Source: Thermoplasmatota archaeon (GTDB taxonomy: Archaea > Thermoplasmatota > Penumbrarchaeia > Penumbrarchaeales > Penumbrarchaeaceae). From it: DNA of 64,000 bases. The notes under the pieces are model-generated. The model did not search any database. It saw nothing but the letters and a program-made list of their open reading frames with translations, and had not been told where the DNA came from. Shown here piece after piece: positions 221 through 4,731 of this stretch. The translations under genes and the position numbers were made by a program. How positions within the stretch are numbered: the stretch's first letter is position 1; every line of letters starts with the position of its first letter. The stretch spans positions 7,084 to 71,083 of the forward strand of contig JBLIRH010000003.1 in the NCBI GenBank assembly GCA_049472215.1, read 5' to 3'.

Positions 221-1723
221 ATGGTGATACCAGTGAACAACATATCGGAGACGAAGGACATCTTCACCTGCCCCCAGTGTTCGGGTAAGTTCAAGGCCGG
301 TATTCTGGAAGTGCCGAAAGCATACAAATGCCCCTCCTGCAAGGGGATAGTGACCGTTTTCCCGGATCGAGGTGTCAGGTCTGGTGATTTCACAAAGCAG
401 CTGGACAGCCCACAAGCCCGTGAGAGCCTGGAAATGCTGGACAAGATATCGAAGGGTCTTTTGGGAGAACAAGAGGTTGACGAAACTGCCCTGGCGGAGG
501 AGGAAAGAAAACTCTTCTCCGAGATCATGGAGCAGATGAAAGAGATAAAGAGCAAACAGGATAAGGCAGTGAAGGACACCTCCGCTGATGAGCTTAAGAA
601 ATTGAAGGATGAGAACTCCTTCCTGAAGGAAAAACTGACTCAAATGCAGATCGAGCTCAAGGAACTGAGATCGGGCAACGGAAGAAAGATCACCTCTACA
701 CCCAGGGAAAACCTCGATGCCCAGGTACAGCAGCTCAAGAACCGTATCCAATCACAAGCTGAGATCATTTCCACCCTTAACAAGGAGAAGCAGGATCTCG
801 AAACACAATTGGCAGACGGGGCATCCAGCAAAGACCGATCGGATCTGTTCGCACAGCTGGGACAGACGAAGGCAATGCTCGAGCAGAGGGAAGAGGAGGT
901 CAACGAGAGAGAACTCTCTCTCGACAAAAGGGAGAAGGAGCTATCTGACCTTTCCGACAAGATGGAGATGGATCGAAGCTCCAACGAAGAGTTCCGGAAG
1001 GAACTCGACCAGTACCAGGCCAAGCTGGAGAACCGCGCCATAGCTCTTGCCAGCGAAAAAGAGGAACTTGATAAGATCAAGATGGAATATGCCCACGTCC
1101 AGGACCTTGCCGAGGAGTTGCAGATCAAGGAGAAGGAGATGGACGAGAGGGAGAACAACCTTCACGAAATGGAAAAGGACCTGATGATAACGAGGGGAAA
1201 CCTCAGGCAGACGGAGATGATGATCGGGGTCCTTCAGGAAAGGGAGAGGGTCCTCACGATAAGGGAAAAGGGCCTGGACGATAGGGAAAAGGCCCTTGAG
1301 AAGTCAAACCGCGACCTCGTCGAGCTGAAGAAGAACCTTGTCACCAGGGCCAAGGAGCTTAAGCAAAGGGAGGACAGCTCGAAGCTTCTTGAAAGTGGCC
1401 TCCAGAAACGGGAGGAAGCCCTGAGGTCCGCCTCGGAGAAATGGAAGACGTTCGCCAGGCAACTTGAGGAATACAAAAAGGAGCTTGGCAGGTCATCTGA
1501 AGAGCTCCAGGAGTGGGAGGAAAGGCTGAAGGAGCGGGAAGACAAGCTCCAGGCTGCCAGGGAGAAATTGAGGACCTTGAAGGCAATGATGACCCAGGGG
1601 TCCGTTGCTGAAAAAGATGAGGCAGCTACTGGAAAAAGCGGGGAAGAGCTAACAAAGGAGATCGAAAGCAAAAAGGAAGGTCTCCAGAATGTCGAGGACA
1701 AGCTCAAGAACATATTGGATTGA
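221..1723 (+). CDS. Zn-ribbon plus long coiled-coil protein, function unknown
   Basis: 500-aa ORF. N-terminal CPQC-x16-CPSC zinc ribbon (nt 269-340), then about 430 aa of E/K/L/R/Q-rich heptad-like sequence. Its stop overlaps the start region of the next coiled-coil ORF. Confidence 0.7.
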   Translation: MVIPVNNISETKDIFTCPQCSGKFKAGILEVPKAYKCPSCKGIVTVFPDRGVRSGDFTKQLDSPQARESLEMLDKISKGLLGEQEVDETALAEEERKLFSEIMEQMKEIKSKQDKAVKDTSADELKKLKDENSFLKEKLTQMQIELKELRSGNGRKITSTPRENLDAQVQQLKNRIQSQAEIISTLNKEKQDLETQLADGASSKDRSDLFAQLGQTKAMLEQREEEVNERELSLDKREKELSDLSDKMEMDRSSNEEFRKELDQYQAKLENRAIALASEKEELDKIKMEYAHVQDLAEELQIKEKEMDERENNLHEMEKDLMITRGNLRQTEMMIGVLQERERVLTIREKGLDDREKALEKSNRDLVELKKNLVTRAKELKQREDSSKLLESGLQKREEALRSASEKWKTFARQLEEYKKELGRSSEELQEWEERLKEREDKLQAAREKLRTLKAMMTQGSVAEKDEAATGKSGEELTKEIESKKEGLQNVEDKLKNILD

Positions 1724-4700: not shown

Positions 4701-4731
4701 TCCGTTCTGCAGCGGCAAGTTCTCTCTCTGA
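1720..4731 (+). CDS. Giant modular coiled-coil protein with two C-terminal Zn ribbons, function unknown
   Basis: 1003-aa ORF. The track start is TTG at 1720; GTG 1741 or ATG 1753 are alternatives. It is almost entirely E/K/Q/L/R-rich. Motifs YRxQLExYRxQLEE and LQAAILKLQTENxxLKE recur. C-terminus carries CPYC-x13-CPNC and CPHC-x13-CPFC (nt 4537-4713). Confidence 0.75.
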   Translation: MITGGIKVPEEMTGEQVVENTEQGIAEETGGEGGATMAADHSGEEERREEMQTKLREKLMELKQKEEELTAKENSLLEMEAELKQEREQLETYRGQLEEYRNQLEETSREIQQQAQVESEQHEEKAPPEEETPSPLQEAVLKLQEENTSLKARIEELEAQGAVNEEQQVDQEEQDTDLDAQRREIEEKKKKLEEYRDQMENYREQLMAKSHELEKKEKEITEREEAEKKKDSDALDKMQNIILKLQTENSDLKKELKGTGEKMEEASEEKKAELEEKERALNDYRSQLENYREQLEEQRVQLDERARSLEEDRSEEIQKFKETVSELNEKITSLEKQMEQGAAGHDDGLEKEKELLEEDRKQLQTSREEFEQYREQLEEYRKQLEEREAELERKMEDVGSRDQEKRSEENEKLERLQAAILKLQTENKELKEEVQKTRDSMSEMEKAETKKAGEEEQALQEGKAEVKKQREELENYRGQLEDYRASLEEQAKELEERKRELEKQDNEKMEKLQAAILKLQTENKELKEGQEAKTARDDAALSKEKEELVVDRKKLEEGKLALKEGKQHLEGIKELLDEKEKTLQTREEEVQARILIIKQEEDELEAREEKLDIEFKGIEEKKASVEKMKEELDTYRGQLDEFRSQLEKKAAELEEHSKDIEEKEGTAENKLEKLQAAILKLQTENTDLKEQLKTKTEKEQVQADQMTDSIEAETKELEEKRKVIEQEKEQLETYKGQLEDYRSQLEERAAEMEKQANEVEEKRLALDAKEKELEERKAETPPSAVSPDQAAQIEKLQQVLINLQNDLGEERKKRSDLESRLEQAAMKVGEEQDQKISEIEKKTSELEEYRGKLDEYRAGLEKQMKDVQDSQVKLDARSRELDDLQKSIEARSKELDKRDASLKKAAQKIMEQRREIEEGQKTREPAREKAEQQEKEVYSCPYCNHSLTPADLEKEICPNCAKKFVSGEEEELVIYECPHCGRSITEDVVEKGACPFCSGKFSL
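1996..4290 (+). repeat. Intragenic array of about 8 modules of roughly 90-160 aa inside the coiled-coil gene
   Basis: The Y(R/K)xQL(E/D)x(Y/F)R motif occurs at about aa 93, 195, 284, 373, 476, 635, 734 and 849. The LKLQ-type motif occurs at about aa 141, 243, 421, 517, 679 and 798. DNA is identical over 31 nt (ctccagaccgagaacaaggagctgaaggaag) at 2986-3016 and 3274-3304, with a 16-nt partial third copy at 3760-3775. Confidence 0.85.

Follow-up and report, generated by a model that had tools for sequence, protein, structure and literature searches.

What do two overlapping genes build in an archaeal cell when both code for long coiled-coil proteins bearing zinc ribbons at their outer ends? Such a pair, here termed A and B, occupies positions 221 to 4731 of the window, i.e., of the whole 64,000-nucleotide (nt) stretch analyzed from a Thermoplasmatota archaeon (assembly GCA_049472215.1, contig JBLIRH010000003.1). 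The answer favored here, with moderate confidence, is that the two proteins are halves of one cytoplasmic, non-enzymatic rod, a bipartite tether or scaffold with two different docking ends. The original prediction, made from the sequence alone, had described an operon of two adjacent, overlapping open reading frames (ORFs) of 500 and about 1000 amino acids (aa), and this description stands: the ORFs of 500 and 1003 aa overlap by 4 nt and make up an operon of two genes, whose products are cytoplasmic coiled-coil proteins bearing ribbons solely at the outer ends. The features on which the argument rests first are the following.

221–1723, + strand: gene A, ORF of 500 aa with ATG start, encoding a zinc ribbon at the N-terminus, followed by the coiled-coil rod, a flexible linker and one last helix
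1720–4731, + strand: gene B, ORF of 1003 aa with TTG start, encoding a segmented coiled-coil rod and a C-terminal double zinc ribbon
1720–1723, + strand: TTGA overlap, with start TTG of B on stop TGA of A, by sequence a junction of the translational-coupling type
251–388, + strand: N-terminal zinc ribbon of A (aa 11–56), basic, MJ0042/ZitP-like
4528–4728, + strand: C-terminal tandem zinc ribbons of B (aa 937–1003), 8 cysteines in two similar units YxCPxCxxxLxxxDxxKGxCPxCxxxF

Fused orthologues and the split into two genes

Strong support for A and B acting as one unit comes from three other genera, in which natural fusions place both in a single ORF. These ORFs, of 1093 aa in G012, 788 aa in G008 and 802 aa in G024, carry the ribbon of the pair at the N-terminus and its double ribbon at the C-terminus, and a 957-aa protein of the representative library (P0015) has the same fused build. 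The fused orthologues are collinear with the locus of the window, their N-terminal part aligning to A and their C-terminal part to B; the two-gene form is found in genera g1, g4, g5 and g6. As the copy in G024, which lies outside the GTDB family of the window, is fused, fission of a single-chain ancestor would be the simpler reading of how the pair arose.

Starting from the single-chain form of the sister genera (zinc ribbon, coiled coil and double zinc ribbon), the two chains may re-join end to end after the gene split, and candidates for such a joint are present at the inner ends of both proteins.

1643–1717, + strand: C-terminal helix of A (AlphaFold2, aa 475–499), motif IESKKxxLxxxExKIKxLL; candidate docking helix for B
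1870–1896, + strand: first-helix motif of B (aa 51–59), MQTKLREKL, after a disordered N-terminus of ~42 aa; candidate counterpart of the terminal helix of A

The motif of A is shared by g1, g5 and g6 and, in degenerate form, by g4 (G018), and the fused orthologues lack it; that of B, MQxKLRxKL, occurs in the split lineages g1, g4 and g5 and not in the fused orthologues. In the proposed joint, the terminal helix of A would reach from behind its flexible linker to meet the first helix of B, with each chain probably forming a parallel homo-oligomer.

Only four relatives of A were retrieved from among 5.8 billion protein clusters, all of them from Thermoplasmatota metagenome-assembled genomes (MAGs). 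A profile of the phyletic distribution, which the original prediction had suggested together with a comparison of module number among relatives, was drawn from whole genomes and places the family in 17 of the 24 species and six of the seven genera of the window's GTDB family, the seventh genus (g3) being represented by G008. Outside it, one genome of a neighboring family of the same order (G024) carries the gene, and the family was not found in the other seven families of the class or in 24 other genomes of the phylum. In the genomes surveyed, it occurs only in one order of the Thermoplasmatota class EX4484-6, a label borne by one member of the family; this class has been named Ca. Penumbrarchaeia and attains 90% relative abundance in a protein-fed enrichment (PMC12220078). 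Within its GTDB family the gene is close to core, most genomes without it being incomplete MAGs.

Within this distribution, A measures 478–509 aa in g1, g5 and g6 and 759–798 aa in the g4 orthologues, and its orthologues share many position-specific conserved blocks. For B, lengths of 679–1017 aa were found, with 0–8 copies of its YR box (see below) among close relatives; an A of ~500 aa pairs with a B of 682–1017 aa, and an A of 759–798 aa with a B of 679–833 aa. Judged from these comparisons, B is a variable-length spacer shaped by lineage-specific gain and loss of modules, and A is conserved in length and sequence. A may be regarded as the conserved adaptor half of the rod and B as its variable, acidic spacer half. 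The idea of a ruler-like element, put forward in the original prediction, fares poorly in this comparison of module numbers, since with a length and box count as variable as those of B a fixed-length ruler is unlikely and an adjustable-length spacer fits better. In place of the modules of B, the fused orthologue of G024 (L030:317–2725, − strand) contains its own six-fold repeat of ~85 aa, ERDEIIxKWxESYxELKEKYDKL; thus, separate lineages have built the rod anew, each from repeats of its own.

Both A and B are real genes under purifying selection, with dN/dS values of 0.076 and 0.133, respectively, against the orthologues of the sister species G006. At the overlap, which reads GAT-TGA / TTG-A, the TTG start of B is supported by the G005 orthologue, which uses ATG (MITGG...) at the same overlapping position, i.e., ATGA, the N-terminus of B being (L/M)ITGG... 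The host occurs in marine-sediment and mangrove metagenomes, and short contigs at least 99% identical to the locus were found in four metagenomes from three studies. As DNA contigs from three metagenome runs (X2, X4, and X7) independently span the A/B junction without indel, the split is no frameshift error. Polymorphism in module number, sought in the metagenome contigs, was seen only as one low-support joint (side 21). Expression, the lack of which would have spoken against the original prediction, is weakly indicated by a 246-nt metatranscriptome contig mapping to 209–454, and a search of RNA runs for the gene of a relative gave no match. Long minus-strand ORFs also run within A and B (window 58–4656, − strand), for example, one of 287 aa at 3793–4656 (−); these were rejected as genes, since they mirror the + strand's bias toward purine-rich GAR codons, with an AT skew of up to 0.51.

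Coiled-coil rods and the repeat modules of B

The original prediction had called both proteins almost pure coiled coil, and a formal heptad test agrees. Positions a and d are hydrophobic to 61–66%, compared to 15–18% at the other positions, and the heptad z-scores versus 200 shuffles amount to 7.7 for A (aa 165–459) and 15.4 for B (aa 43–921). Therefore, A and B are coiled coils and not single charged helices, and an E/K-rich single alpha-helix domain is ruled out by this hydrophobic a/d seam. In the AlphaFold2 models (A, from an 11-sequence alignment, mean predicted local distance difference test [pLDDT] of 78.6; B, pLDDT 67.5 and predicted template-modeling score [pTM] 0.23, i.e., moderate confidence), both proteins consist nearly entirely of long helices with small beta zinc-ribbon ends. 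A is modeled as a ribbon (aa 12–54), three short helices, the main helix (aa 165–459), a disordered linker (aa 460–474) and, beyond it, one single terminal helix.

713–1597, + strand: main rod of A, in AlphaFold2 a single helix of 295 residues (aa 165–459), ~44 nm

This main rod reaches pLDDT values above 90 over aa 220–380 and shows conserved blocks in the alignment of A orthologues. In the model of B, a disordered N-terminus of ~42 aa is followed by seven helices of 26–182 residues (43–120, 135–160, 175–337, 348–529, 544–660, 670–776, and 789–921), separated by short breaks containing Pro or Gly, and then by the small double-ribbon domain. With an alpha-helical rise of 0.148 nm per residue, the summed predicted helices would give ~55 nm for A and ~120 nm for B, and an assembled rod could be up to ~175 nm long. 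Neither protein has a hydrophobic (membrane) segment, and the net charge is −99 for B and −16 for A.

Searches of A and B in Pfam, NCBIfam, PDB sequences and Foldseek yielded nothing above noise, in agreement with the earlier view that the pair belongs to no named family. Scanned against Pfam and NCBIfam, A, B and the fused orthologues gave only sub-threshold coiled-coil and generic zinc-ribbon noise, Foldseek of both AlphaFold2 models against the PDB gave no match at E ≤ 0.001, and in the literature nothing pertinent was found on zinc-ribbon coiled-coil cytoskeleton proteins of archaea. Headless relatives of SMC or Rad50 had been named with the original prediction as a family that homology searches might reveal, and models of SMC, Rad50 and archaea-specific SMC-related proteins (ASRP; TIGR02168, NF003034, NF045487) in NCBIfam do match at E-values of 1e-16 to 1e-9, the long coiled coil being common to both sides. 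A and B could on this basis be degenerate relatives, forming an antiparallel arm in which the heads are replaced by zinc ribbons and A pairs along B. However, the matches amount to coiled-coil noise, as they score 36–61 bits versus cut-offs of 300–1087 (5–20 times below) and align to the coiled-coil part of the models only. The ATPase head motifs, hinge and zinc hook of these proteins are all missing: Walker A and a mid-coil CxxC are absent in A and B, Walker A also in the fused orthologues, and AlphaFold2 places no globular domain in mid-coil. Moreover, A and B differ in length among relatives independently of each other, which an antiparallel A:B arm would not tolerate. Membership in these families was accordingly rejected, and the antiparallel arm, contradicted by both the sequence features and the length variation, is highly improbable.

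Within the rod of B, the modularity claimed in the original prediction is confirmed, with eight modules at whose borders the heptad register shifts.

1921–4524, + strand: eight repeat modules of B (aa 68–935), 89–159 aa each, with one (LExYRxQ)x2-3 box per module
2986–3016, + strand: 31-nt exact repeat, copy 1, in the LQ box of module 4
3274–3304, + strand: 31-nt exact repeat, copy 2, in the LQ box of module 5

The YR box, Y[RK]xQLExYRxQL, was counted eight times, as had been predicted (aa 93, 195, 284, 373, 476, 635, 734, and 849), and represents 2–3 perfect heptads L-E-x-Y-R-x-Q, with Leu at a and Tyr at d according to the sequence spacing. In six of the eight modules it is trailed by the LQ box, LQxAILKLQxENxxLK, for which the predicted number of about six resolves into five strict copies (aa 136, 238, 416, 512, and 674) and a degenerate sixth near aa 795 (LQQVLINLQNDL). 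For Tandem Repeats Finder, these modules of ~90–115 aa have diverged too far in DNA sequence (~60–84%) to be recognized, and the predicted pair of identical 31-nt segments is the longest exact DNA repeat. From this pair, recent or concerted duplication had been deduced, which holds only locally. Each module of the window has its collinear counterpart in G006, and the LQ box of module 4 resembles that of module 5 (paralogue identity 0.79) no more than either resembles its orthologue in G006 (0.76–0.81); therefore, most duplications predate the speciation of the two. In gene B of G005 (L033:3487–6210), an internal duplication or gene conversion is clearly more recent: two LQ boxes, one at aa 310 and one at aa 579, share 87% DNA identity, with 84% at third codon positions, and the ~20 residues after them repeat exactly.

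Zinc ribbons as putative docking ends

As predicted, zinc ribbons are confined to the outer ends of the pair. All 12 cysteines fall within three terminal CxxC...CxxC ribbons, and every CxxC is no more than 60 residues away from a terminus. The only cysteines of A are C17, C20, C37, and C40 (CxxC-x16-CxxC), those of B are C940/943/957/960 and C977/980/994/997 in two CxxC-x13-CxxC motifs, the 8 cysteines of this double ribbon being invariant in 10–11 orthologues. The two ends differ, with a basic ZitP/MJ0042-like ribbon at the N-terminus (net charge +1 to +7 in 12/12 orthologues) versus a mostly acidic tandem pair at the C-terminus (−7 to +1 across orthologues). For the ribbon of A, AlphaFold2 predicts five beta-strands at a pLDDT of 86–88. 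Of the 15 N-terminal domains of the family, 11 match Pfam Zn_ribbon_4 (PF13717, MJ0042 type; best E 1.8e-5) and 10 match PF13719, the window's own ribbon being sub-threshold. The N-terminal profile finds among PDB sequences the ZitP zinc finger 2nb9 over the whole domain (E 1.4e-3), and Foldseek aligns the ribbon to LysW (TMt 0.74) and ZitP (TMt 0.54, root-mean-square deviation 2.5), both non-significantly. The ribbon of A is thus probably of the MJ0042/ZitP kind, albeit with all scores below curated thresholds.

ZitP of Caulobacter crescentus (PDB 2nb9; Zn_ribbon_4/5) carries its Cys4 ribbon at the protein start, as A does, but sits in the membrane as a bitopic protein, contains a DUF3426 domain and no coiled-coil rod, and is bacterial whereas A is archaeal. 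To our knowledge, no PopZ, the protein bound by ZitP, is known in archaea. Through its ribbon, which serves for protein docking, ZitP binds PopZ (eLife 2016, PMC5182065). By analogy, the zinc ribbons of A and B might be protein-docking "address" modules; being placed at two differing ends, they would enable the rod to tether, space or scaffold two different cellular partners. Such an architecture has a eukaryotic counterpart in tethers of the EEA1 type, where a coiled-coil rod of more than 100 nm has a zinc-binding domain at each end and the ends bind different partners. This is an analogy and not homology, as the zinc domains of EEA1 are of the C2H2 and FYVE types versus plain ribbons in A and B, no membranes or GTPases are implicated for the latter, and the EEA1 FYVE structure 1joc was matched by Foldseek solely at a non-significant level.

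Many Cys4 ribbons bind nucleic acids, and the basic N-terminal ribbon would suit a rod that bridges the nucleoid by ribbons bound to DNA or RNA, doing an SMC-like job without an ATPase. The weak best matches would point the same way, including Rpo12, TFIIB-type and C2H2 fingers, as would the generic zinc ribbons found with the C-terminal profile among PDB sequences (e.g., Rpo12/RpoP at E ~2e-3). However, these matches are generic and under curated cut-offs, the double ribbon is mostly acidic and both chains have a negative net charge. With no helix-turn-helix or other DNA-binding domain in A or B either, a nucleic-acid or chromosome tether is quite improbable.

The opposite charge of the terminal ribbons across orthologues bears on another reading as well, a self-assembling cytoskeletal filament in which units would join by the basic ribbon of A docking on the following unit's acidic double ribbon and/or by lateral packing of rods, as in crescentin, FilP and Scy. 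The N- and C-terminal ribbons are weakly alike (35% over 46 aa), and A and B resemble these bacterial coiled-coil-rich proteins in being long, segmented, non-enzymatic heptad coiled coils of repeated units whose length changes by repeat gain and loss. Crescentin, FilP and Scy are, in contrast, single chains without terminal zinc ribbons and have no sequence relationship to A and B: the crescentin rod model (PF19220, Rod_CreS) matches neither, and its matches to relatives are noise (19.7–31.8 bits versus a cut-off of 100), so that a crescentin- or intermediate filament-like protein was rejected at the level of sequence. Furthermore, the C-terminal domain has no net charge or one of +1 in 3 of the 12 orthologues, and the charge of B disfavors lateral packing without counter-ions or partners. 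Self-assembly is thus unlikely. Rather unlikely, too, is its most specific form, in which A–B units of ~175 nm, joined head to tail by basic on acidic ribbons, would constitute an unseen cytoskeletal system of Ca. Penumbrarchaeia, tuned in length by the ~100-residue modules and with the fission site as a regulated joint. If true, this joint, with the tethered terminal helix of A on the first helix of B, would let the cell assemble or exchange rod halves.

A HMMER scan with the C-terminal profile recovered few true relatives and otherwise tandem ribbon arrays on unrelated proteins, whereas a word-indexed search with the last 99 residues of B gave no match. As similar units occur on unrelated proteins, the ribbon unit of B is a portable binding repeat rather than a family signature, and the proteins sharing only this unit were rejected as family members. 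Their arrays (ECPxC...ECPxC...FT) lie C-terminally on caspase-like, TIR, Ser/Thr-kinase and FGE-sulfatase proteins (P0013, P0016, P0017, P0018, P0026, and P0027) and resemble sensor arrays of conflict systems. Two Lachnospiraceae loci from the related-locus search were likewise dismissed, encoding unrelated double-ribbon proteins without coiled coil. In the host genome, a terminal Cys4 ribbon combined with coiled coil or extreme poly-Glu/Lys is encoded at C86:25170–26435, C22:32252–33253 and C58:760–1704, among these a 421-aa coiled coil with C-terminal ribbon and a protein composed of ribbon, poly-E and second ribbon. These proteins are unrelated to A and B, of which no close paralogue was found there; the pattern MGLxxKA, sought in six frames of the whole genome, did not occur at any long coiled-coil ORF.

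Gene neighborhood and weight of the readings

In the family, the order of genes is a giant surface protein with pilin signal, a J-domain protein (divergent), A, B, an FG-GAP protein (convergent), MBL and XPD-like, and the part from the giant surface protein to FG-GAP is kept in all seven genera. The J-domain protein of ~700 aa, encoded just upstream of the window and divergently from A (G000:C32:5064–7049; L020:5016–7238), has a signal anchor, an ectodomain of ~470 aa, a transmembrane helix and a cytoplasmic J domain; the FG-GAP membrane protein, convergent with B, has an Arg-rich cytoplasmic N-tail of ~72 aa. Both could offer a docking site, and this conserved order would fit a membrane-skeleton linker, i.e., a rod bound to the cytoplasmic J-domain tail and/or to the basic tail of the integrin-like FG-GAP protein. 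In G024, the sole out-of-family orthologue, however, the coiled-coil gene sits behind a hybrid histidine kinase and FG-GAP lies on another contig. Since the linkage is lost there, the adjacency was treated as plain family-level collinearity and the two neighbors were rejected as functional evidence. A membrane-skeleton linker is about as improbable as a nucleic-acid tether.

Filament, membrane-skeleton linker, nucleic-acid tether and SMC-like arm each weigh less than the bipartite tether or scaffold. Several points nevertheless weigh against the latter. The neighborhood yields no partner, with J-domain and FG-GAP proteins adjacent only within one GTDB family; the AlphaFold2 models are of monomers only, that of B at moderate confidence; the likeness to ZitP and Rpo12 is sub-threshold and may reflect just the generic Cys4 ribbon fold; the one short contig that is the sole evidence for expression could be DNA carry-over; and the oligomeric state, the A–B contact and the ribbon partners are all what we infer.

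Taken together, A and B form an undescribed family, restricted to one order and narrow in distribution, whose general kind is familiar: a long coiled-coil scaffold bearing binding modules at its ends. Among archaea, long structural proteins of this coiled-coil type have been characterized in very few cases, and in Ca. Penumbrarchaeia, a rare-biosphere class with genomes rich in unknown genes (PMC12220078), in none. The bipartite rod represents a natural experiment, in which the same structure comes as one chain or two, its docking ends conserved and its spacer free to evolve, so that the end-to-end joint, the ribbons as address tags and the tuning of length become directly testable hypotheses. 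The partners of the ribbons, if found, would point to an unknown organizing principle, for example, an anchor at pole, membrane or nucleoid.

Beyond the rod itself, two observations concern its neighbors. In G024, the genes for XPD-like, MBL and FG-GAP lie together on one strand of the other contig (L046, G024:C53:28000–40369), and the same order is found at 4739–10326 of the window; by this arrangement, the FG-GAP membrane protein seems to belong with the XPD-like and MBL unit. The J domain gave 15 tblastn matches in the 2.4-Mb genome, unusually many J-proteins for an archaeon.

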